64,000 nt of DNA from the NCBI GenBank assembly GCA_934643865.1, contig CAKUCX010000006.1, positions 16,936 to 80,935 of the forward strand, given 5' to 3'. This DNA comes from an uncultured Kiritimatiellota bacterium (GTDB taxonomy: Bacteria > Verrucomicrobiota > Kiritimatiellia > RFP12 > UBA1067). A model generated the notes under the pieces. The model was not told the DNA's origin. It was given only the letters and a program-made list of their open reading frames with translations, and ran no database searches. Position 1 is the first letter of the stretch. Each line of letters opens with the position of its first letter. Below are positions 31,080-64,000 of this stretch, one piece after another. Made by a program: the position numbers and the translations under genes.

Positions 31080-31257
31080 GGGCCTATGATAACACAGGAA
31101 CGGGAGAATGACAAGACTACGGTGCGGACGAAATCCTGTTTTCGCCTTGAACCGTCTCATGGAAAACCAACCGCGTCGAGAGCTGTCGCGCGGGGAGCTT
31201 GAAATCCGCCTTTTGGCATGGATGTTCCCCGGCCAAAGCAGCACGCCCGCCTCCCGT

Positions 31258-31396
31258 TGGGCTGGCGACCGGATTGCTTGGGCTGGCAACTGGATTGCGT
31301 GGGCTGGCGACCGGATTGCTTGGGCTGGCGACCGGATTGCTTGGGCTGGCGACTGGATTGCGTGGGCTGGCGACCGGATCGCTTGGGCTGGCGATC
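31258..31396. repeat. 21-bp tandem repeat, about 6.6 copies (TGGGCTGGCGACCGGATTGCT)
   Basis: Units start at 31258, 31279, 31300, 31321, 31342 and 31363, with a partial unit at 31384. Each unit has 0-3 substitutions. Confidence 0.9.
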
Positions 31397-51823: not shown

Positions 51824-53206
51824 ATGAAGAGGAGCCGTGTTCTTCTGCTTGTTCTCGCCGCCGCGCTGGGGACGGCCCTCGCGGCGGATCCGGAACGGAC
51901 GGACGTGAAGCTTTCCGGGAACCGCGTCCTGCGGCTCGCCAACACGCGCGCGCGCAACTACGAGCTTGCCGCGCAGCTTTCGCTGAACGGTGGCCAGACC
52001 TGGTCGAACGCCCTCGTGCTGGACGCCGAACGCAGCGGGCTGTCGGGCTTCTCGGCGCGCGAACGCGACGACGGGAGGATCGAAATCTCCTATTCGAAGG
52101 GGGCGGGCGCCGCGCGCGAGGCGTTCCGGGCGGTCGTTTCCGAGAATGACCTGCGCGTCGGGCGGCTGATGAGCGCGGACGCGAAGATCATGGAACGCAC
52201 CCGCCCGGATCCGGCCTGGACGTGGCACGACGGCTCGGCGCTGCCGCAGGAAGGGCGCGGCTTCCGCGACACGGCGACGCCGTACCGCCGCCTGCCCGAA
52301 CGGCTGAAGGCGAAGTGCCCGGCGGGGGTCTGGCATCTGGGCCGCCAGTCGAGCGGCATCCTCTACCGCTTTCGGACGGATGCGCGCCGGATGCGGATCC
52401 GCTGGGAAGTCAAGGACCGCCAGCTGAGCGGCCACAACATGACGGGGGCTGGGAAGAGCGGCATCGACGTCTACGGCTGGACGGAGGGGCGCGGCTGGAC
52501 GTTTGTGAGCGGCAGCCGCCCGAAGCTCTTCGTGAACGAGATCGACGTCGCGTGGACGCCGGGGCGGCCCTGCATGGTCTACCTGCCCCCGTACAACGAG
52601 GTCGTCGCGTTCCAGATCGCCGTTCCGAAGGGCGCGTCGCTTGAGCCTCTGCCGCCCCGGGCAAGCGGCGTCGCCAAGCCCGTCGTCTGCTACGGGACAT
52701 CCATTACGCAGGGGGCCTCCGCCTCGCGTCCGGGCCTGACGTGGACGGCGCAGGCGGCGCGGCGGGCCGACGTGCCGTTCGTGAACCTCGGCTTCGCCGG
52801 CAACGGCAAGATGGAGGCGACGATGGTCGACGTCGTCGCCGAGATCGACGCATCGCTCTACGTCCTCGACTGCCTTTGGAACATGGACGAGGACATGGTG
52901 CGCACGCGCTTCGAGCCGTTTCTGCGCGCGCTGCGCCGCCGCCGTCCGGACGTGCCGATCCTCTGCGCGGAGGACTGCTCGACCTTCCGCGACGCGACGG
53001 CAAAGGGTGCGATCGTGAAGCGCCTCGTCGCGCGGCTGCGGGCGGAGGACCCGGCGCGCTGGAAGGGCCTCCATTTCCTTCCCAACGTGCGGGAGATGCT
53101 CAGGGACGGCGAGGAGACCGTCGACGGCTGCCATCCGAACGACTGCGGCATGAAGCAGCTCGGCATCGCCTTCGGCGACATGTTCCGCGAGATCCTCCTC
53201 AAGTAG
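51824..53206 (+). CDS. SGNH hydrolase with GxDxY-type N-terminal domain (carbohydrate esterase-like), secreted
   Basis: SGIDVYGW (GxDLY-type N-domain), YGTSITQG (block I), GFAGNG (block II) and DGCHPND (block V) are present. Signal peptide MKRSRVLLLVLAAALG. Confidence 0.65.
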   Translation: MKRSRVLLLVLAAALGTALAADPERTDVKLSGNRVLRLANTRARNYELAAQLSLNGGQTWSNALVLDAERSGLSGFSARERDDGRIEISYSKGAGAAREAFRAVVSENDLRVGRLMSADAKIMERTRPDPAWTWHDGSALPQEGRGFRDTATPYRRLPERLKAKCPAGVWHLGRQSSGILYRFRTDARRMRIRWEVKDRQLSGHNMTGAGKSGIDVYGWTEGRGWTFVSGSRPKLFVNEIDVAWTPGRPCMVYLPPYNEVVAFQIAVPKGASLEPLPPRASGVAKPVVCYGTSITQGASASRPGLTWTAQAARRADVPFVNLGFAGNGKMEATMVDVVAEIDASLYVLDCLWNMDEDMVRTRFEPFLRALRRRRPDVPILCAEDCSTFRDATAKGAIVKRLVARLRAEDPARWKGLHFLPNVREMLRDGEETVDGCHPNDCGMKQLGIAFGDMFREILLK

Positions 53207-54137
53207 CCCGCCCCTCCGCGCCGTGGCCGACCGCGCCCTCGCCCGGCGTCATGTTCTCGCCGACGAGGTCCGAGGCGGCGTCGCGGCTCGCAAAGCCCTG
53301 GATCCAGCCATTTTCAAACCCGAAGTCCGCCGCCGCCTCGGTGACGGTCTCGTATTCGTCCTTTGTGACGACACGGTTGAAGGGGGGCGTCTCGCGCGCC
53401 TTGAACGCGGGTGCGTACTGGCTCATCACGGAGACGTGGACGCGGGGCGAACAGGCGGTGGCGAGCCAGGCGAGGTTCTCGACGGCCTCGTCGGCGTGTC
53501 CGGGCAAAACGAGGATGCGCACGATGACGCCGCGTGTCGCGGCGCCGGGCGCATCGGAATCTAGAGGCCCCAGCGTCTCCCAAAGGTGTTTCACGCTCGC
53601 GCGCGCGGCGGCGACGTAGCCGGGCGCCTCGGAGGCGGCGCGCGCCGTCGCGTCCGAGGCGTAGCGCAGATCGACGAGCGCGATGTCGCAGAGGTCGCGC
53701 CAGGCCGCAAGCGTCTCGGGGCGCTCGTAGCCGCTGGAGTTGTAGACGAACGGCAGGCGGACGCCCTCGGCGAGGAGCGGCGCGACGGCGGCGCGGATGG
53801 CGGGCAGGTACGGCGTCGGCGAGACGAGGTTCCAGTTCGCGCAGCGGCGCGTGACGGCGAGCGTGCGGAAGGTGTCGGTGAGTTCGGGGATCGAAAGGTC
53901 GCGCCCCGCCCCCTGCCAGCTCCAGGGCGCGTTCTGGCAGTAGAGGCACTTCATCGTGCAGCGCGAGAAGAAGACGGCCCCCGAACCCGTCTCACCGCAG
54001 ATGGGCGGTTCCTCGCCGAAGTGGGGGCCCCAGCGGAAGACGCGCGGCTCGGCACCCGCCTGGCAGAAACCAAGTGAACCGCGTGTGCGGTCCGCACGGC
54101 AGCGGCGGGGGCAAAGTTCACAGGGAGGGAGGATCAT
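53199..54137 (-). CDS. Radical SAM protein (PflX-like activase family)
   Basis: The CTMKCLYCQN CxxxCxxC cluster is preceded by a Cys-rich N-terminus (CELCPRRC). Confidence 0.7.
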   Translation of the reverse strand: MILPPCELCPRRCRADRTRGSLGFCQAGAEPRVFRWGPHFGEEPPICGETGSGAVFFSRCTMKCLYCQNAPWSWQGAGRDLSIPELTDTFRTLAVTRRCANWNLVSPTPYLPAIRAAVAPLLAEGVRLPFVYNSSGYERPETLAAWRDLCDIALVDLRYASDATARAASEAPGYVAAARASVKHLWETLGPLDSDAPGAATRGVIVRILVLPGHADEAVENLAWLATACSPRVHVSVMSQYAPAFKARETPPFNRVVTKDEYETVTEAAADFGFENGWIQGFASRDAASDLVGENMTPGEGAVGHGAEGRAT

Positions 54138-54148
54138 GGGATTTAAAT

Positions 54149-54405
54149 GGTTAAGTCGCCGCTGCGCGGCTTTGAGTGGTTAAGTGGTTAAGTAGTTAAG
54201 CTTAAGTAGTTTAGGTTTAAATAATAACGAAATAGGGTAATTTTTTGCCACAAAGAACGCAAAGACCGTAAAGGCGTTGCGTTTTTTGTGGCGCGCAATA
54301 TTTGATTGCCGAAGGAACGCCTACTCATCTCTTCAACTTAAGCACTTAATTACTTAAATACTTTAACTTAACCACTTAACCACTTAACTACTTAACCACT
54401 TAAGG
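54149..54405. repeat. AT-rich dyad module: GGTTAAGT octamer array (left), ACGCAAAG-type hairpin (54247-54292), ACTTAANN octamer array x9 (54336-54405, right)
   Basis: GGTTAAGT occurs at 54149, 54178 and 54186, then decaying units run to about 54225. ACTTAACC-type 8-bp tandem units run from 54336 to 54405. The central hairpin arms are GCCACAAAGAACGCAA / TTGCGTTTTTTGTGGC. Confidence 0.85.
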
Positions 54406-55281
54406 GTCTGTTTGTCCGTTCTGTTCACGGAGGTATTTCGCGCGCACGCGCAGGAACGCGAGGCCGACGAAGGGCACCGTGAGGATGTAGAGGAGCCCCA
54501 CGACGCCGAGCGTGGGCCAGAAGTGCGTGAAGAGGAACGCGACGAGCAGGATGAGCGCGGCCATGGTCGGCAGCAGGTAGGCGCGCGTGAGGTGGACGCC
54601 CTTGAGGGAAATCGTCGGCAGGCGCGAGGCCATGAGCGCGCCGACGAGGAAGAGCATGAACATCGCGAAGGCGGGATGCTGGAGGACGGCGGGGAGGTTG
54701 AGCGCGTCCGGGAGCGACAGGGCCAGCAGGGCGGGCGTGAGGACCATCCAGCAGCCGCCGGGCGCAGGCACGCCGAGGAAGAAGTGCTTCCAGTACGGAA
54801 CCGCGGGCTGTTCGAGCATCGTGTTGAAGCGCGCGAGGCGGAAGGCGTCGCAGAGCGCGTAGAAGAGCGCGAAGGCGAGAAGCGCCTGCTTCGTCTGCAG
54901 CGAGAGGGCGAGGTCGCCGCTCAGCACCCAGAAGTAGAGGAACATCGCCGGCGCGACGCCGAAGTTGACGAAGTCCGCGAGCGAATCGAGCTCGGCGCCG
55001 AGCTTCGAGCTGCACTTCAGGAGGCGCGCGACGCGCCCGTCCATCGCGTCGCAGATGCACGCGACGATGAGGGCGACGAGCGCGAGCTGCCAGTCGCGCG
55101 TCGCGACGGGCTGGCCGGCGAGCGTCTTCGCGTAGTTCGTCGCGCTGAGGGCGATCGCGGTGATGCCGCCGCAGGCGGCCATCGAGGTGATGAGGTTCGG
55201 TACGACCGCGCGCAGCGGGACGCTGTCCTTTCGGGCTTCGTGGTTCTTGCGGCGGCGACCGCGCAGTCTGAATTTGCTCAT
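54400..55281 (-). CDS. pssA: CDP-diacylglycerol--serine O-phosphatidyltransferase
   Basis: The CDP-alcohol phosphatidyltransferase motif DAMDGRVARLLKCSSKLGAELDSLAD is present in a multi-TM protein. Confidence 0.85.
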   Translation of the reverse strand: MSKFRLRGRRRKNHEARKDSVPLRAVVPNLITSMAACGGITAIALSATNYAKTLAGQPVATRDWQLALVALIVACICDAMDGRVARLLKCSSKLGAELDSLADFVNFGVAPAMFLYFWVLSGDLALSLQTKQALLAFALFYALCDAFRLARFNTMLEQPAVPYWKHFFLGVPAPGGCWMVLTPALLALSLPDALNLPAVLQHPAFAMFMLFLVGALMASRLPTISLKGVHLTRAYLLPTMAALILLVAFLFTHFWPTLGVVGLLYILTVPFVGLAFLRVRAKYLREQNGQTDP

Positions 55282-55293
55282 GAGTGAAGGGGA

Positions 55294-55342
55294 AGGTTTT
55301 AGGTTTCAGGTTTCAGGTTCTAGGTTTTAGGTTTTGGGTTTT
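55294..55342. repeat. 7-bp tandem repeat x7 (AGGTTTY)
   Basis: AGGTTTT AGGTTTC AGGTTTC AGGTTCT AGGTTTT AGGTTTT GGGTTTT fills the 69-bp gap between the GH stop and the pssA start. Confidence 0.9.
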
Positions 55343-55350
55343 AGCCAAAC

Positions 55351-57765
55351 CTACCGGGCGGATTTGAGGAGGCGGGGGTTGCGGATCCAGAAGGAACAGG
55401 TCGTGCCCTTGGGGTTGGCACCGAGGCGGATCGCCTTCACGGCGCCGGGCTTCGCGCTGGAAGGGCCGAAGGTGAGGTCGATGCGGCGCGTCTCCCAGCC
55501 CGTGAGCGGGGCGGGGTAGGAGATGAAGCGCGCGTGGCGCGCGGGGTCGGCGAAGACGAGCATGAGGTTCTGACAGGCGAAGTCGTTCTCGACCTTGTCC
55601 TGCGCGCTCTTGACCTCGAACTCGAACATGAGCGCGTCGTCGAAGGCCTCCTCGGGGAGGGTGAGCGTGTAGACGGGGTAGAACCAGCGGTCGGCGGGCT
55701 TCGTCCAGGCGAGGTCGAAGCGCAGGGCCCCTTCGGCTTCATCCCAGACGGCGGCGAAGCGGTCGGCGGAGGTGTTGCGCTGCCAGGCTTTGGGGTCGCG
55801 CCAGTTCCGCAGTACGGTCGTGCGGCAGGTCGCGAGGAACGCCTTCAGGTTGCGTACGGGCATCGCGAGGCGGCTCGTGCGCCGGCCCTCGAAGCGGCCC
55901 GTGAGGACGAGCGGCTCGACGAGCGGCGCGCCCGCGCGCGGGGCGTAGGTGCAGGCGAAGGCGGCCGCGCCCATCGGCGGCAGGGCGATCTCGGCGGGGA
56001 GGCCGGAAAGCGAACCGCCCGCGACGGAGACCGTGCCGCGCTTGGCGACGGGGGAGAGGTTCCAGACCTGGACGCGCAGGCGGCCCGTGTCGGCGCGCAG
56101 TTCGGCGACGGACTTGTGGCTTGCGATGCTAAAGTCGTTCGTGTTGAGGTCGACGCGGAAGACGACGGAGAGGTCTTCGTCCGCCGTCGGGACGGAGGGC
56201 GTGGGCGTGCCGCACGGGAAAGGCGCAATGTCCGCCTTCAGGCCCCGGAGGCCCGAAAGGTAGGCGGTGTAGCGGGTCGCGGTGACGACGTTCGTGGAGA
56301 GGGTGGTGCGCTGTCCGCAGAGGTCGGTGAGCGTGTAGGCGCCGGACGGGGGAATGGGCAGGGTGAGCGTCGCGGCGCCGTCGGGCGTCGCGGCGGCCGT
56401 CTCCGTGGCGGTGTCGACGGGCGACACGCGCCAGAAGGCGAGCGTCTGCGAGCCGTCCGGCTGCGCGAAGAGGTAGCCCTTGAACGCCTCGCCGAGCCGG
56501 ACCTCGCCTTCGAGACGGGCGGCGGCGAGTTCGCGCGTGATCGCGCTCATCGCGGCGTAGGTGGGCTTGACGGTGCCGTCGCGGCGCATCACGCCCCAGT
56601 CCTTTGCGCCGTTGCGTTCGTTGTAGGCGCCGAAGACGAAGAAGTAGTTGCGCGAGACGCCCTGCATCTGGAAGGCGATCTGGCTCTTGGCGTAGAACTC
56701 GGCGTGGATCAGCTCCTGGGCGGGCGAGTGGGCCTTCTGTCCCTTGACCGCGCCGTCTTCGTCCGAATGGCCTTCGAGGTTCGTGCCGCTCTCGGTCATC
56801 CACACGGCGCGGCCCGCGATGCCGGCCTTCTCCATGAAGGCGCGCAGCTCGCGGAAGATGGCGGGGTAGCGGCTGAGCGGGGCGTAGGTATGGAAGTTGA
56901 AGACGTCGGAATACTTCGCCGCGTCGTTCGCGTAGAGGCCCGCGTCGTAGGCGGTGCGCGTCGCGTGGCAGACGGCGCCGGGGAGGACGGGCATCGCGGG
57001 CCGCGCGGCCTTGAAGCCGAGGTAGGCGGCCTTGAGGGCGGCCACGTAGTCCCAGACGGGCTCGGGGGCGAAGGCGATGTCCTGCTCGTTCCAGAACTCC
57101 CAGTCGCCCATGCGGTCGCCGAAGGCGGCGGCGGTGTCGCGGCAGAAGGCGTAGAGGGCGGCGAGGTTGCGGGGAAGCTTCTCGATGCGGTCCATGTAGT
57201 CCGGCACGTCGTGGAACATGCCCGAGACGCGCATGCCGCGCGCCTGGAGCATATCCGCGTTGTACATGTAATAGGAATAGTCGTAGACGCCTGGGCGCGG
57301 ATTCACTTCGGCGGCGCGCAGGCGTTCGCGCACGTGGGCGAGGCCGGTGCGCCAGAGGAGGTCGCTTACGAGGCGGTAGGTGTCGCCGCCGTACCAGGGG
57401 CATTCGAAGCTGCCGGGGTGCGAGACCCAGCTCTGCGCGGAGTCGACGCCGTAGAAGGAATCGTCGGTGCGCACGCGGCCCTCGGGCACCGGCACGACGG
57501 CGAAGGTGGCGTCCGCGCCCGCACCCTTCAGGTGGTAGTAGCCGACGGGACGCTTCCCGAGCGCGGCGCATCCGTCCGGCGCGAAGGTGCCGGAGGCCAG
57601 GGCACGCCCGCGCCAGTCCGTGAGCGTCCACGCCGCCCCGGCGGCGCCGCCCCGCGCGGTCGCCCGCTCCCGGTCCGTGTAGACGTGCCCCGGCGCGTCA
57701 AGGGTCAACTTCGCCTGCCCTGTCAGCAGGACGCCCGCCACCAGCGTAAGGAAGATTGTCTTCAT
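55351..57765 (-). CDS. Secreted glycoside hydrolase, clan GH-A-like TIM barrel with C-terminal beta-sandwich domains
   Basis: Signal peptide MKTIFLTLVAGVLLTG and an acid/base-like DWEFWNEQD. About 804 aa from ATG 57765. The upstream 180 codons of the track ORF are read-through. Confidence 0.5.
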   Translation of the reverse strand: MKTIFLTLVAGVLLTGQAKLTLDAPGHVYTDRERATARGGAAGAAWTLTDWRGRALASGTFAPDGCAALGKRPVGYYHLKGAGADATFAVVPVPEGRVRTDDSFYGVDSAQSWVSHPGSFECPWYGGDTYRLVSDLLWRTGLAHVRERLRAAEVNPRPGVYDYSYYMYNADMLQARGMRVSGMFHDVPDYMDRIEKLPRNLAALYAFCRDTAAAFGDRMGDWEFWNEQDIAFAPEPVWDYVAALKAAYLGFKAARPAMPVLPGAVCHATRTAYDAGLYANDAAKYSDVFNFHTYAPLSRYPAIFRELRAFMEKAGIAGRAVWMTESGTNLEGHSDEDGAVKGQKAHSPAQELIHAEFYAKSQIAFQMQGVSRNYFFVFGAYNERNGAKDWGVMRRDGTVKPTYAAMSAITRELAAARLEGEVRLGEAFKGYLFAQPDGSQTLAFWRVSPVDTATETAAATPDGAATLTLPIPPSGAYTLTDLCGQRTTLSTNVVTATRYTAYLSGLRGLKADIAPFPCGTPTPSVPTADEDLSVVFRVDLNTNDFSIASHKSVAELRADTGRLRVQVWNLSPVAKRGTVSVAGGSLSGLPAEIALPPMGAAAFACTYAPRAGAPLVEPLVLTGRFEGRRTSRLAMPVRNLKAFLATCRTTVLRNWRDPKAWQRNTSADRFAAVWDEAEGALRFDLAWTKPADRWFYPVYTLTLPEEAFDDALMFEFEVKSAQDKVENDFACQNLMLVFADPARHARFISYPAPLTGWETRRIDLTFGPSSAKPGAVKAIRLGANPKGTTCSFWIRNPRLLKSAR

Positions 57766-60245: not shown

Positions 60246-63200
60246 CTACTTGCCGCCGGCCGCCAGCGGCCTTTCGCTGACCCAGACCTTGAAGAAGCCG
60301 GACGGGCTGCCGACGGGCTTCCTGACCACGAGACGGGTCGCGGCCGTGGCGGGCGCGGACGCGCCGGGGCAGACGAGCCCGTCCAGCGACGCCGCAGACG
60401 CCGCCGCATAGTAGAGCCCCGGCACGATCTCGACGTTCAGCGTCACGCTCCCCTCGCCGTCTTCCGTCCACGGCCCGTCCGCGATCGCCCCGGATCTCTC
60501 CACCTCGAACGGCGCCTTGAGCGCGACGACCGCCGTCGCGCCGCCGGACGCGATCTCGACCCTGTACGCCTTCCGCGCCACGGGGAAGGCGAAGTCGGAC
60601 TCCGCCAGGGCCACGCCTTCATTCGCCGTCACGACATAGCGGCCGTCACCGCTTTCCGCAATCGTCCCCTTGCCGCCGACGCTGAAGGTCGGCTGGGCAG
60701 GGCCGTCGTGCCATTCGACCGTCATGCCCTGCCACGTGCCGCCCGTCACCTCGTAGGTCGCATTGTTCCTCGGCAGCCGCACGACACAGGCAGCGGAAAC
60801 CCCGTTGAACGCTCCATCCATGTCAACAGTCGGCGCATCGCCGTCAAACGTCACGCTCGTCAGCCCGCTGCAGCCTGAAAACGCATCATACCCGATGCTC
60901 GTCACGCCGGCGGGGATTGTCACGCTGGTCAGACTGCTGCAGTCTTCAAACGCTTCATACCCGATGCTCGTCACGTCGGCGGGGATCGTCACGCCTGTCA
61001 GCCCGCTGCAGCCTTCAAACGCATAGGCCTCGATGCGCGTCACGCCATCGGGGATCGTCACGCCCGTCAGCCCACTGCAGCCGGAGAACGCACCTTTCCC
61101 GATGCGCGTCACGCCGTCGGGGATCGTCACGCCTGTCAGCCCGCTGCAGTCTGAAAACGCCCACTTTCCGATGCTCGTCACGCCGTCGGGGATCGTCACG
61201 CTTGTCAGCCCGCTACAGCCTTCAAACGCCCCTCCCCCGATGCCGCGGATTCCCGTCAGATCCAAGCTGCCGGAAAGAGAATCGGAGCATCCAACCGCCC
61301 ATCCATCGACGAGCTTGACGCCCGAAATCGTGTTCGTGTCAAAGAGCGCGTCGCTGCAGGCAGAGAACGCATTCCACCCGATACTCGTCACGCTGGCGGG
61401 AATCGTCACGCCTGTCAGCCCGCTGCAGCCGGAGAACGCTTCGTCCTCAATGATTGTCACGCCGTCGGGGATCGTCACGTTCGTCAGGCCGCTGCAACCC
61501 TCAAATGCATTCCACCCGATGCTCGTCACGCTGGCGGGGATCGTCATGCCCGTCAGCCCGCTGCAACCGGAGAACGTCCCATCCCCGATGCTCGTCACGC
61601 CGTCGGGGATCGTCACGTCCGTCAGGCCGCTGCAGCCCCCAAACGCATACTCCCCGATGCTCGTCACGCCGTCGGGGATCGTCACGCTTGTCAGCCCGCT
61701 GCAGCCTTCAAACGCCCCGCCCCCGATGCCGCGGATTCCCGTCAGATCCAAGATTCCGGAAAGAGAATCGGAGCATCCAACCGCCCATCCATCGACGAGC
61801 TTGACGCCCGAAATCGTGTTCGTGTCAAAGAGCGCATCGCTGCAGCCGGAGAACGCATTCCACCCGATACTCGTCACGCTGGCGGGGATCGTCATGCTTG
61901 TCAGGCCGCTGCAGCCTGAGAACGCCCAGTCCCCGATGCTCGTCACGCCGTCGGGGATCGTCACGTCCGCCAGCCCGCTGCAGTCTGAGAACGCCCAGTC
62001 CCCGATGCGCGTCACGCTGGCGGGGATTGTTACGCTTGTCAGCCCGCTGCAGCCTGAGAACGCCCCGCCCCCGATGTCCGTTACGCTGGCGGGGATCGTC
62101 ACGTCCGCCAGCCCACTGCAGTCTGAGAACGCCCAGTCCCCGATGTGCGTCACGCTGTCGGGGATCGTCACGCCCGTCAACCCGCTGCAGCCCTGGAACG
62201 CATAGTCCCCGATGCTCGTCACGCCGTTGCCGATCGTCACGCTTGTCAGCCCGCTACATCCCCGGAACGCATAGGCCCCGATGCGCGTCACGCTGGCGGG
62301 GATCGTCACGCTCTCAAGGCCCGCGCAACCTTCGAACGCCCCGTCCTCGATGGATGTCGTGCCGACCGAAATGACAAGGTTGGTCAAATTGTCGAGCGGA
62401 AGGTCACACCGGACTCCCGGCAGGCACGCCTCACGCACGTTGTTGCAGCCGGCAAAAGCCCCATATCCGATGTCCGTCACGTCGGCGGGGATCGTCACGC
62501 TCGTCAGCCCGCTGCAGCCGGCGAACGCCCAGTCCCCGATGTGCGTCACGCTGTCGGGGATCGTCACGCCCGTCAACCCGCTGCAGCCCTGGAACGCATA
62601 GTCCCCGATGCTCGTCACGCCGTTGCCGATCGTCACGCTTGTCAGCCCGCTACATCCCCGGAACGCATAGGCCCCGATGCGCGTCACGCTGGCGGGGATC
62701 GTCACGCTCTCAAGGCCCGCGCAACCTTCGAACGCCCCGTCCTCGATGGATGTCGTGCCGACCGAAATGACAAGGTTGGTCAAATTGTCGAGCGGAAGGT
62801 CACACCGGACTCCCGGCAGGCACGCCTCACGCACGTTGTTGCAGCCGGCAAAAGCCCCATATCCGATGTCCGTCACGTCGGCGGGGATCGTCACGCTCGT
62901 CAGCCCGCTGCAGCCGGCGAACGCCCCATACCCGATGCTCGTCACGCCGTCGGGGATCGTCACGTCCGCCAGCCCGCTGCAGTCTGAGAACGCCCAGTCC
63001 CCGATGCGCGTCACGCTGGCGGGGATTGTTACGCTTGTCAGCCCGCTGCAGCCTGAGAACGCCCCGCCCCCGATGTCCGTTACGCTGGCGGGGATCGTCA
63101 CGTCCGCCAGCCCACTGCAGTCTGAGAACGCCCAGTCCCCGATGTGCGTCACGCTGTCGGGGATCGTCACGCCCGTCAACCCGCTGCAGCCTTTAAACGC

Positions 63201-64000
63201 CCCGCCCCCGATGCCGCGGATTCCCGTCAGATCCAAGATTCCGGAAAGAGAATCGGAGCATCCAACTGCCCATCCATCGACGAGCTTCACGCCTTGAACC
63301 GTGTTCGTGTCAAAGAGCGCATCGCTACATTCTTCAAACGCCCCGATCCCGATGCTCGTCACGCCGTTGCCGATCGTCACGCTTGTCAGCCCACTGCAGC
63401 CGTAAAACGCTCCGTTCCCGATGCGCGTCACGCCGTCGGGGATTGTTACGCTTGTCAGCCCGCTACAGCCGGAGAACGCAGAGGCCCCGATGCTCGTTAC
63501 GCTGGCGGGGATTGCCACGCCTGTCAGCCCACTGCAGTCCTTGAACGCAGAGGCCCCGATGTCCGTCACGCTGACGGGGATCGTCACGCCTGTCAGCCCG
63601 CTGCAGCCGTAGAACGCATAGGCCCCGATGCTCGTCACGCCGTCGGGGATCGTCACGCTTGTCAGCCCGCCGCAATCCTCAAACGCAGAGTCCCCGATGT
63701 GCGTCACGCTGGCGGGGATCGTCACGCCCGTCAACCCGCTGCAGCCCTGGAACGCAGAGGCCCCGATGCTCGTCACGCCGTTGCCAATCGTCACGCCTGT
63801 CAGGCTCTCACAACCGTAGAAAGCGGATTCCCCGATGCTCGTCACGCCGTTGCCGATTGTCACGCTTGTCAGTCCGCTGCAATCCTCAAACGCAGAGTCC
63901 CCGATGTGCGTCACGCTGTCGGGGATCGTCACGCCCGTCAACCCGCTGCAGCCCCGGAACGCATAGGCCCCGATGCTCGTCACGCCGTTGCCGATTGTTA
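60246..64000 (-). CDS. BspA-type leucine-rich-repeat (LRR_5) giant surface protein, 5'-partial (continues beyond window)
   Basis: There are more than 45 repeats of the form IPxxVTxIGxxAFxGCSGLTSVT. The reading frame is still open at 64000. The C-terminal ~190 aa are non-LRR. Confidence 0.85.
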   Translation of the reverse strand, partial: TIGNGVTSIGAYAFRGCSGLTGVTIPDSVTHIGDSAFEDCSGLTSVTIGNGVTSIGESAFYGCESLTGVTIGNGVTSIGASAFQGCSGLTGVTIPASVTHIGDSAFEDCGGLTSVTIPDGVTSIGAYAFYGCSGLTGVTIPVSVTDIGASAFKDCSGLTGVAIPASVTSIGASAFSGCSGLTSVTIPDGVTRIGNGAFYGCSGLTSVTIGNGVTSIGIGAFEECSDALFDTNTVQGVKLVDGWAVGCSDSLSGILDLTGIRGIGGGAFKGCSGLTGVTIPDSVTHIGDWAFSDCSGLADVTIPASVTDIGGGAFSGCSGLTSVTIPASVTRIGDWAFSDCSGLADVTIPDGVTSIGYGAFAGCSGLTSVTIPADVTDIGYGAFAGCNNVREACLPGVRCDLPLDNLTNLVISVGTTSIEDGAFEGCAGLESVTIPASVTRIGAYAFRGCSGLTSVTIGNGVTSIGDYAFQGCSGLTGVTIPDSVTHIGDWAFAGCSGLTSVTIPADVTDIGYGAFAGCNNVREACLPGVRCDLPLDNLTNLVISVGTTSIEDGAFEGCAGLESVTIPASVTRIGAYAFRGCSGLTSVTIGNGVTSIGDYAFQGCSGLTGVTIPDSVTHIGDWAFSDCSGLADVTIPASVTDIGGGAFSGCSGLTSVTIPASVTRIGDWAFSDCSGLADVTIPDGVTSIGDWAFSGCSGLTSMTIPASVTSIGWNAFSGCSDALFDTNTISGVKLVDGWAVGCSDSLSGILDLTGIRGIGGGAFEGCSGLTSVTIPDGVTSIGEYAFGGCSGLTDVTIPDGVTSIGDGTFSGCSGLTGMTIPASVTSIGWNAFEGCSGLTNVTIPDGVTIIEDEAFSGCSGLTGVTIPASVTSIGWNAFSACSDALFDTNTISGVKLVDGWAVGCSDSLSGSLDLTGIRGIGGGAFEGCSGLTSVTIPDGVTSIGKWAFSDCSGLTGVTIPDGVTRIGKGAFSGCSGLTGVTIPDGVTRIEAYAFEGCSGLTGVTIPADVTSIGYEAFEDCSSLTSVTIPAGVTSIGYDAFSGCSGLTSVTFDGDAPTVDMDGAFNGVSAACVVRLPRNNATYEVTGGTWQGMTVEWHDGPAQPTFSVGGKGTIAESGDGRYVVTANEGVALAESDFAFPVARKAYRVEIASGGATAVVALKAPFEVERSGAIADGPWTEDGEGSVTLNVEIVPGLYYAAASAASLDGLVCPGASAPATAATRLVVRKPVGSPSGFFKVWVSERPLAAGGK
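62127..62926. repeat. Perfect 396-bp tandem duplication (2.02 units) inside the LRR gene
   Basis: 62127-62530 reads identically to 62523-62926 in a line-by-line comparison. The encoded 132-aa block is duplicated exactly. Confidence 0.85.

Follow-up and report, generated by a model that had tools for sequence, protein, structure and literature searches.

The 64,000-nt stretch analysed here (the window) is C6:16936-80935 of G000, a gut Kiritimatiellae metagenome-assembled genome (MAG) of 3.31 Mb in 122 contigs with 68% GC; the genomes with which it is compared are likewise MAGs. Within this window a pssA-like gene lies between an upstream co-directional gene and a downstream radical-SAM-like gene, and both of the gaps that separate it from these neighbours are filled by tandem arrays of short units (Table 1). 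The Pfam Radical_SAM match of the downstream gene is weak (E=3e-6, under the cut-off), and its N-terminus, MILPPCELCP, agrees with relatives. Between pssA and this gene, two octamer arrays face one another around a loop that holds a hairpin: on the plus strand, GGTTAAGT-type units at 54149 and 54175-54200, decaying until ~54225, lie opposite nine ACTTAANN units across 54336-54405, and Tandem Repeats Finder (TRF) reports AGTGGTTA x3.2 at 54175-54200 and ACTTAACC x8.8 at 54336-54403. On the other side of pssA, seven AGGTTTY heptamers (AGGTTTT x7.3 at 55294-55344 by TRF) occupy the 69-nt gap from the upstream gene's stop to the pssA ATG, and end 12 nt before that ATG. Pattern searches against dinucleotide shuffles gave nine octamer-dimer matches where 0.02 were expected, and six heptamer-dimer matches where 0.31 were expected. 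This layout, which an earlier sequence-only reading of the window had described, is thus confirmed, as are the AT-rich character of the island within a GC-rich genome (GC of 0.34-0.44 over 54150-54400 against ~0.68-0.70 in the flanks) and the entry of the right-hand array into the last codons of pssA, whose stop codon (TAA at 54400-54402, minus strand) falls in the last octamer unit, that is, in the first GGUUAAGU unit on the mRNA. A Shine-Dalgarno (SD) motif is absent before both the pssA and the radical-SAM start codons.

Table 1. Genes, arrays and related features at the pssA locus (window coordinates), with the two gene-bearing cassettes found elsewhere in G000 (contig coordinates)
Feature	Position	Strand	Remarks
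Radical-SAM-like gene, downstream of pssA	53199-54137	minus	open reading frame; ATG at 54135-54137
Start-proximal arm of octamer dyad	54138-54225	minus	ACUUAACC-type, G-poor on mRNA strand; reaches radical-SAM ATG
Mini-hairpin GCCGC-TGC-GCGGC	54158-54170		inside start-proximal (left) arm
Segment inverted in closest relative (L007)	54172-54403		breakpoints within both arms; blastn
Dyad loop	54226-54335	no strand	nested copy of independent dispersed hairpin element, 'ACGCAAAG' family
Central hairpin	54247-54292		within dyad loop
Stop-proximal arm of octamer dyad	54336-54405	minus	GGUUAAGU-type on mRNA strand
pssA-like gene, CDP-alcohol phosphatidyltransferase	54400-55281	minus	Pfam PF01066, E=4.5e-17
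Single-arm heptamer array	55294-55344	minus	(A/G)AAACCU x7 on mRNA strand
Upstream co-directional gene	55351-57765	minus	stop at 55351-55353; no Pfam match
Octamer-armed cassette	C53:22077-22598		outside window
Heptamer-armed cassette	C19:29029-29877		outside window

A genome-wide TRF run revealed that the AT-rich short-period arrays of G000 mostly consist of two units, the octamer AACCACTT/AACTACTT and the heptamer AAAACCT, which are the only multi-locus short-unit families of such kind in this genome. A chain search located 107 octamer and 29 heptamer segments (136) in 77 intergenic regions. With 77 loci across the genome, the arrays are not a feature of pssA, and the suggestion that they might form a regulatory module for this gene in particular is unsupported.

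The arrays instead form one family with common units, polarity and ends. Wherever a region contains both orientations, the GT-rich array precedes the AC-rich one (24/24 dyads), and no violation of this polarity occurs among 74 co-directional regions. The remaining half-elements comprise 25 sense-only and 25 antisense-only regions, each arm being attached to its own flank; the equal counts indicate that there is no preference relative to gene direction. We considered the co-directional bias of the regions (74/77) as an argument, but dropped it, since 88% of all G000 intergenic regions are co-directional and the bias is therefore weak (p=0.013). The GT-rich arm starts at the predicted stop codon or at most 5 nt from it in 19 of the 25 sense-only regions, the TAA or TAG of its first unit often being the stop codon itself, and the AC-rich arm ends at most 12 nt from the ATG in 14 regions. 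Thirteen of these 14 starts lack an SD-like motif, which is present in 44% of genes genome-wide. As the gene model is home-made (codon-position log-odds, retrained under a GC1>GC2 constraint) and its starts are approximate, these distances to starts and SD counts are approximate as well. The outer ends of the arrays are sharp, and at both ends the outermost unit tends to read R-G-A followed by TTAAGT, with purines before. Among the heptamer loci, 18/21 are single arms.

That the arrays are insertions is evident from comparison with relatives. Both pssA arrays are kept in L007, L008 and L009 (92-93% PssA identity), with unit order and number changed, so they are neither unique to this assembly nor unconserved, and the refuting condition named in the sequence-only reading does not apply. 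In L010-L020 (71-87% identity), no arrays are present and pssA and the radical-SAM gene abut or overlap. For ten G000 loci, the two flanks were joined and used as queries against eight genomes of the genus, and the matches were fetched. At 7/7 junctions, the genomes free of arrays (G176, G013, G074, G017, G022, G200) have either an overlap (TGATG, ATGA, ATGGATGA) or a spacer of 1-24 nt with just an SD, while in G000 the arrays stand directly at or after the stop codon, upstream of the retained SD, and often rewrite the last codons of the upstream gene. Since the corresponding junctions are tight or overlapping in relatives without arrays, the arrays must have been inserted into formerly tight junctions.

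Inheritance since then has been vertical, with rapid change in length and occasional inversion. In the sister species G001, 18/18 collinearly mapped array loci are also filled in G000, with flank identities of 86-99% and lengths that differ in all but two, and G014 and G222 are filled at every junction for which both flanks were found. Gains become visible only at greater depth, G022 and the outgroups being empty at G000 junctions; G022 itself, empty at the five G000 array junctions tested, has arrays of its own with the same ends (GGAGA followed by TTAAGT) at loci that are not collinear with G000, and no reciprocal empty sites for these could be mapped in G000 because the flanks are not collinear. 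Of 29 genomes sampled in the genus, just five are rich in period-8 TTAAG arrays and a sixth (G200) has a few; the rest of the order has almost none. For period-7 TAGGT arrays, the count is 21/244 genomes and 12/47 genera, with spacers that are lineage-specific (TAGGTTT, TAGGTGK, TAGGTAA, TAGGTKA).

Three further observations concern these same junctions. At L072 (G200:C320), orthologous to the junction at G000 C3:73460, there is a CCTAGAATCT-type array of 3-4 units where G000 has an octamer dyad, and this junction appears to have been colonised by another repeat dialect in G200. In L021:2361-2510 (RUG11483, rumen; 74% PssA identity), a dyad of 9-mers, (GTTAAGGTC)n...(ACCTTAACN)n, lies at the pssA/radical-SAM junction, and relatives intermediate between the window and L021 have no array there. 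Finally, L011, L012, L015-L018 and L021, all of which lack the heptamer array, carry a conserved AAAATG(A/C/G)GATAAT 30-70 nt upstream of pssA; this resembles an extended -10 promoter element and is missing in the window, where pssA directly follows another gene.

The closest relative, L007, provides the example of inversion. Window positions 54403-54172 align to L007 2642-2411 (94% over 232 bp, blastn) with both flanks collinear, which is the expected product of recombination between inverted arms. A loop inverted between two close relatives, together with copy numbers that differ between species at nearly every locus, might also be expected of contingency loci, at which array slippage or loop inversion would switch pssA or the radical-SAM gene within a population. 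The sequence-only reading had listed a slippage-prone contingency region among its options, and as far as fast copy-number change between species is concerned this stands. Phase variation itself we consider very improbable: most of the 77 loci belong to housekeeping operons, the arrays lie between cistrons, outside promoters and reading frames, and no promoter-like element is present in loop or arms.

A host function of another kind deserves somewhat more attention. The arrays could be selected cis-regulatory devices, with iterated sites through which a global RNA- or DNA-binding factor (S1, Csp, a CsrA-like protein, Rho or a nucleoid protein) would adjust translation or polarity at operon junctions, in which case any gene carried between them would be a passenger. 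The abutment of AC-rich arms on starts without SD and of GT-rich arms on stops is in keeping with this, as is the stable presence of arrays over four species despite length change, and a core, T(T)A(A/G)GT, is kept across 7-, 8- and 9-nt periods. For the TAACTGA repeats of Beggiatoaceae, a comparable function has been suggested (PMC4679880). Yet close relatives handle the same junctions without any arrays, the flanking genes are functionally unrelated, and the equality of sense-only and antisense-only regions leaves no gene-polarity preference beyond flank attachment. Moreover, units vary by lineage, whereas S1 and Rho are highly conserved. We therefore regard selected host regulation as unlikely, and the association described next, in which arrays travel with a gene family into rRNA and other phyla, also speaks against it.

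Two dyads of G000 have large loops, and each encloses a small open reading frame (ORF): C53:22151-22441 with octamer arms, and C19:29173-29481 with heptamer arms. Both encode members of PF05635, '23S rRNA-intervening sequence protein' (E=2e-24 and 6e-39, respectively), and they are the only PF05635 genes above the cut-off in G000. At 27% identity, these intervening-sequence proteins (IVPs) are divergent; that from C19 also has a sub-threshold bAvd-like match, and PDB relatives of the IVPs (2GSC, 2RLD) were each deposited with five chains. The two IVP genes of G000 thus each lie within a different one of its two repeat dialects, and the units of the gene-less arrays are the arm units of these two cassettes. 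G014 and G222 have the C53 cassette at the same junction, with arms that differ in length. A separate observation is that, at C26:15860-16900, a 233-aa ORF whose N-terminus matches PF05635 weakly (30 bits) is bracketed on both sides by GC-rich 9-mer units (NNNCGGGAC) and then their complements, which makes a third, GC-rich dialect.

Association between array and gene extends across the genus and the order. Ten other genomes of the genus have homologs of the C53 gene, and arrays flank these as well, with a unit for each lineage (TTAAGTRG, GGTTAAAA, AGTTAAAG, GTGTAAA, GAGTTAA and others). At 10/12 of these loci, the gene stands between the arrays, and the G-rich, C-poor strand leads; the dyads of G006 and G002 are instead placed upstream of the gene. 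In these two cases (L104 and L105), the IVP gene is just downstream of an apparent tRNA/tmRNA 3' end (…GGTTCGACTCCCC…CCA), and the dyad that separates it from the RNA gene is of AATAGGTG/ATAGTGA type. Across the order, PF05635 was found in 106/151 genomes. A strict test for inverted arrays (at least three copies of a hexamer upstream and at least three of its reverse complement downstream, mostly with period 7) was passed by 12/30 PF05635 loci sampled, and several more of the 30 have other array arrangements; for comparison, dyads are present in ~1% of G000 intergenic regions. Five genomes of the genus without PF05635 (G013, G010, G074, G007 and G176) have neither array type. A strict co-occurrence of the octamer-cassette IVP with octamer arrays was also considered and rejected, as it fails for G001, G022 and G200.

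Outside the phylum, a tblastn search of plasmid records with PF05635 gave matches mainly in heterocystous cyanobacteria, and eight plasmid loci were inspected. In Anabaena sp. 90 (L141, pANA02), an IVP gene is inserted between cas6 and cas4; its upstream array, (GGTGACA/GGGAACA)n, exceeds 200 nt, and its downstream array is (TGTCACC)n, and a Gemmatirosa plasmid record has the same design. The Picosynechococcus PCC 7003 plasmid (L142) likewise has inverted heptamer arms, with the IVP gene between cas10/cmr2 and cmr3, so that in both L141 and L142 a gene for a four-helix-bundle protein is placed inside a CRISPR-cas operon. Nostoc punctiforme and Calothrix show a clear upstream heptamer array with a short or partial complement downstream, while two Nostoc 7120 copies have the downstream array only, with an ISL3 transposase gene upstream. 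By its flanking sequence, the copy in Azospirillum lipoferum is a true intervening sequence (IVS) of 23S rRNA, and it has GAGGACG/GATGACA units upstream and their complements downstream, in the polarity of the G000 dyads. Inverted short-unit arrays hence bracket PF05635 genes far above chance in several phyla, and also in rRNA. Our literature search recovered no paper that ties the PF05635 family to intergenic tandem arrays, besides an observation in Coxiella that is taken up below.

Could the order of events be the reverse? Arrays might arise on their own, by slippage and ectopic gene conversion, with PF05635 genes inserting later into existing arrays or hairpins. Gene-less arrays do outnumber gene-bearing ones by ~35 to 1 in G000, the arrays of G022 are present without any PF05635 gene, and another small element, the 'ACGCAAAG' hairpin, has also landed in four dyads. 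Against this, true 23S rRNA IVSs have inverted short-unit arms only within the insert (PMC4990558; Azospirillum). Each IVP lineage, furthermore, has its own unit even where that unit is unseen elsewhere in the genome, and the outer ends of the arrays are sharp against the flanks. We consider such reverse causality quite unlikely, indeed slightly more so than host regulation.

The internal structure of the arms bears on a further possibility. Mismatches per unit rise from 0.48 in the outer third of an arm to 0.79 in the middle and 1.26 in the inner third, with the inner third worse than the outer in 29 arms and the opposite in 5 (p=1e-4); the rule by which the walk along an arm terminates biases the inner ends somewhat, so this gradient is suggestive rather than exact. 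The 'TTAGGTTT' motif that the two pssA arrays had been said to share is simply the decayed inner end of the left arm. If arrays were scars of break repair, in which each 3' end at a double-strand break had been extended with templated, telomere-like GT-rich repeats before being rejoined head-to-head, the polarity GT(n)...AC(n) would be that expected of two meeting 3' extensions, as in 24/24 dyads. Arms are also unequal in length, and the IVP family is related to the reverse-transcriptase partner Avd (through the sub-threshold bAvd match). However, units are most perfect beside the flanks and decay inward, the opposite of distal addition, and telomere-like 3' addition is disfavoured on this ground; reverse transcriptase genes show no consistent association with arrays, and loops can contain a whole gene. 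Such an origin seems to us scarcely credible.

The hairpins embedded in the arrays are of two kinds. The central hairpin of the pssA dyad was correctly recognised in the sequence-only reading as belonging to a dispersed family, but it is not integral to the layout: it is a nested insertion from a separate dispersed family, missing from the dyads of L008 and L009, and of ~28 other matches to its 'ACGCAAAG' core in the genome (BLAST), only 3 are near arrays. The four octamer dyads with this hairpin in their loops are on C6, C39, C59 and C69, and other copies, sometimes in tandem clusters, are found at C27:39062-39864, at C62:72-1195 and on C55 and C22. The second kind is small GC hairpins placed between the TTAAGT cores of arrays; the mini-hairpin at 54158-54170 in the left arm of the pssA dyad goes unmentioned in the sequence-only reading. 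On the AC-rich strand, 77/88 of these mini-hairpins have a G-N-A triloop (GAA, GCA, GTA, GGA), and their stems are variable (GCCGC, GCCCC, GGCC, GCCC, ACCC) yet perfectly paired, so that the loop is conserved and the stems covary. The sequence d(GCGNAGC) is an unusually stable DNA mini-hairpin.

Taken together, we consider it probable that the pssA arrays are gene-less derivatives, comparable to miniature inverted-repeat transposable elements (MITEs), of a family of small IVS-like cassettes. They would relate to the cassettes as MITEs do to gene-bearing elements, and single arms would be remnants of dyads. As the loop of the pssA dyad has no PF05635 gene, we file the pssA copies as gene-less derivatives and not as full members. 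Of the options put forward from the sequence, it is a novel mobile or recombination site that is favoured, given the insertions, the family of ~77 loci and the recombination between arms that inverted the L007 segment.

Several observations weigh against this interpretation. There is no evidence for recent movement, since 18/18 loci are shared by G000 and G001. Comparison of filled and empty sites at 7 junctions gave no consistent target-site duplication, and none can be defined, because short ones are masked by the TTAA/TAA-rich ends. Neither a transposase nor any other known mobility gene is associated with the arrays. The orientation of the L007 inversion rests on MAG assemblies, and just 12/30 of the IVP genes sampled across the order pass the strict inverted-array test. 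The heptamer loci are mostly single arms (18/21), for which we infer a foldback ancestry from dyads that are not seen. Two points, finally, concern the distribution of the genes: G022, which is 97% complete, has arrays but no PF05635 gene, and G014 and G222 have a close ortholog of the C53 IVP, which was not found in three genomes that bear octamer arrays, G001, G022 and G200. MAG incompleteness may contribute to the absence of this ortholog, and is possible for G001.

On our preferred interpretation as cassette derivatives, a complete element would consist of a gene for a four-helix-bundle protein of ~110-120 aa (PF05635, S23p, Avd-like) between inverted arrays of 7-8-nt units, with the G-rich, C-poor strand first. 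G000 would then have one octamer-armed and one heptamer-armed cassette, together with ~53 octamer and ~21 heptamer loci that have lost the gene or never had it. Within one gut Kiritimatiellae genus, the ancestor of a sub-clade may have acquired the elements in tight, often overlapping stop/start junctions. Vertical inheritance would have followed, with arms that grow or shrink through slippage or unequal exchange, decay of the inner ends, and flipping of the loop when the inverted arms recombine. The IVP would be the candidate unit-specific factor for spread.

At the RNA level, the 291-nt intercistronic segment between pssA and the radical-SAM gene is predicted to fold with a minimum free energy of -100.5 kcal/mol (z = -8.9), with the pssA stop in the first pairs of the outer stem, which ends 6 nt before the radical-SAM AUG. 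The gaps around pssA contain no consensus for a sigma-70 promoter or an intrinsic terminator, and a search of Rfam gave no family match, only sub-threshold miRNA noise, so on sequence grounds the element is probably transcribed as part of the operon. Once co-transcribed, the two arms may pair into a long stem, the base of which would put the pssA stop beside the radical-SAM start; in this model, a terminating ribosome would open exactly the stem segment that masks the downstream start, and downstream translation could continue despite the 260-nt insert. Having stop and start side by side in a hairpin would explain how translationally coupled junctions tolerate inserts. The stem would, as in rRNA IVSs, be a plausible substrate of RNase III. 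Single AC-rich arms, such as the heptamers before pssA, may in turn act as G-poor, unstructured and SD-independent leaders.

The closest described parallel is with the ORF-bearing IVSs of 23S rRNA, and the claim that no described element has this layout needs qualifying accordingly: it is the layout of rRNA IVSs with an S23p/IVP gene (PMC4990558), here gene-less and outside rRNA. In Coxiella burnetii, the IVS is a 428-nt selfish element in helix 45 of 23S rRNA with an S23p ORF, the inverted repeats at its ends pair into a 28-bp stem that is cut by RNase III, two or three tandem GACAGAT heptamers, strain-variable in number, lie upstream of the ORF, and its origin and mobility are described as unknown (PMC4990558). 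Like the IVSs of Coxiella and Leptospira, the elements described here have inverted arms and a long stem around a loop, a loop gene, where present, of the same family (S23p = PF05635), and arms or leaders of short tandem heptamer-type units that vary in copy number; both are regarded as selfish and vertically inherited. The inverted short-unit arms recur in the Azospirillum 23S IVS. Unlike these IVSs, the pssA element lies between protein-coding cistrons and not in rRNA helices 25/45, the pssA copies are gene-less, with only a nested hairpin repeat in the loop, and arms are much longer (up to 24 units), with ~77 loci in one genome. Excision by RNase III, demonstrated for rRNA IVSs, would apply here by analogy.

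Other repeat families share part of this design. As with MITEs, a rare copy with a gene has the same arms and termini as numerous short copies without one, but no transposase is known, target-site duplication is not demonstrable, the gene carried encodes a small four-helix-bundle protein, and presence/absence polymorphism between close relatives was not found. Eukaryotic foldback elements are palindromic, with variable, unequal arms of tandem short repeats, and in this respect the arrays resemble them; like both MITEs and foldback elements, they are intergenic and amplified within one lineage. Repetitive extragenic palindromic sequences (REPs) and the bacterial interspersed mosaic elements built on them are also dispersed intergenic palindromic repeats in operons, able to form intercistronic RNA hairpins. 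A REP, however, is one imperfect palindrome of 20-40 nt that carries a GTAG/CGTC tag, and not an array of tandem 7-8-mers, whereas the mini-hairpins of our arrays have G-N-A triloops with TTAA flanks and no GTAG tag, and no link of the arrays to REP-associated tyrosine transposases was seen.

Short tandemly repeated repetitive (STRR) heptamers were reportedly described in cyanobacteria by Mazel et al. in 1990, and the STRR-bearing genera are the same as those that dominate the PF05635 plasmid matches. TAACTGA arrays in Beggiatoaceae, Cyanobacteria and Bacteroidetes are intergenic and often stand directly before SD-less starts (PMC4679880). Both resemble the present arrays in their 7-nt head-to-tail intergenic units, often before SD-less starts, and in their patchy, lineage-specific distribution; unlike here, neither an inverted partner arm nor an associated gene is described for the TAACTGA arrays or known to be described for STRRs. 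Paired octa- and heptanucleotide sites on opposite strands have also been reported from Geobacter metallireducens (PMC2700814), with 3-5 tandem units of 7-9 nt at variable distance and in tens of intergenic loci; these shorter arrays were interpreted as binding sites of a global regulator.

A broader scheme would unite these observations, and in so general a form we put it forward only tentatively, thinking it rather doubtful as a whole. IVP/S23p proteins would be sequence-specific partners of their own 7-8-nt units, one lineage for each dialect, and with their inverted arrays would form very widespread, transposase-free mobile cassettes; 23S IVSs would be copies that landed in rRNA, the intergenic heptamer and octamer repeats of many bacteria (of STRR type, and the present arrays) would be their gene-less MITEs, and the pssA dyad would be an IVS at the mRNA level that is looped out of a polycistronic transcript and probably cut out.

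Some further observations can be recorded for completeness. A phage origin of the arrays found no backing in 2.9 million viral contigs, where there were 12 isolated and apparently unrelated matches, in one of which the matches recur every 24 nt, like an in-frame coding repeat. A resemblance of GGUUAAGU to a conserved 16S rRNA segment was taken as coincidence. At C44:20996-22991, a low-GC stretch (0.54) beside a short heptamer array contains a 315-aa ORF with candidate tyrosine-recombinase motifs as judged by eye (HEIRHTFA...LGH...Y). Elsewhere in the window, a large tandem repeat at 60849-63988 (periods of 69/138/207 bp, ~22 copies, 64-69% matches) lies inside a long minus-strand ORF of the gene model (60246-64817) and is presumably a repetitive domain array of a surface protein, and a 21-bp unit is repeated 6.6 times at 31257-31394, with a 63-bp super-unit (97% matches).

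The arrays at pssA are thus best filed as gene-less, operon-resident derivatives of S23p/IVP cassettes, present at ~77 loci and in two dialects that match two resident IVP genes. For annotation, this means that AT-rich short-unit arrays at operon junctions of these genomes are not to be taken for gene-specific regulators. The result joins three subjects, namely rRNA IVSs, the PF05635/TIGR02436 family and intergenic heptamer/octamer repeats (PMC4990558, PMC4679880, PMC2700814), around a four-helix-bundle family that is widespread, structurally solved (2GSC, 2RLD) and related to Avd, a protein of diversity-generating retroelements. With two dialects, two divergent IVP genes and ~75 gene-less copies, G000 is a natural experiment in which a test of binding specificity would be straightforward. 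It also raises the question of how translationally coupled genes tolerate an insert of 100-450 nt, to which the hairpin that brings stop and start together would be a testable answer.

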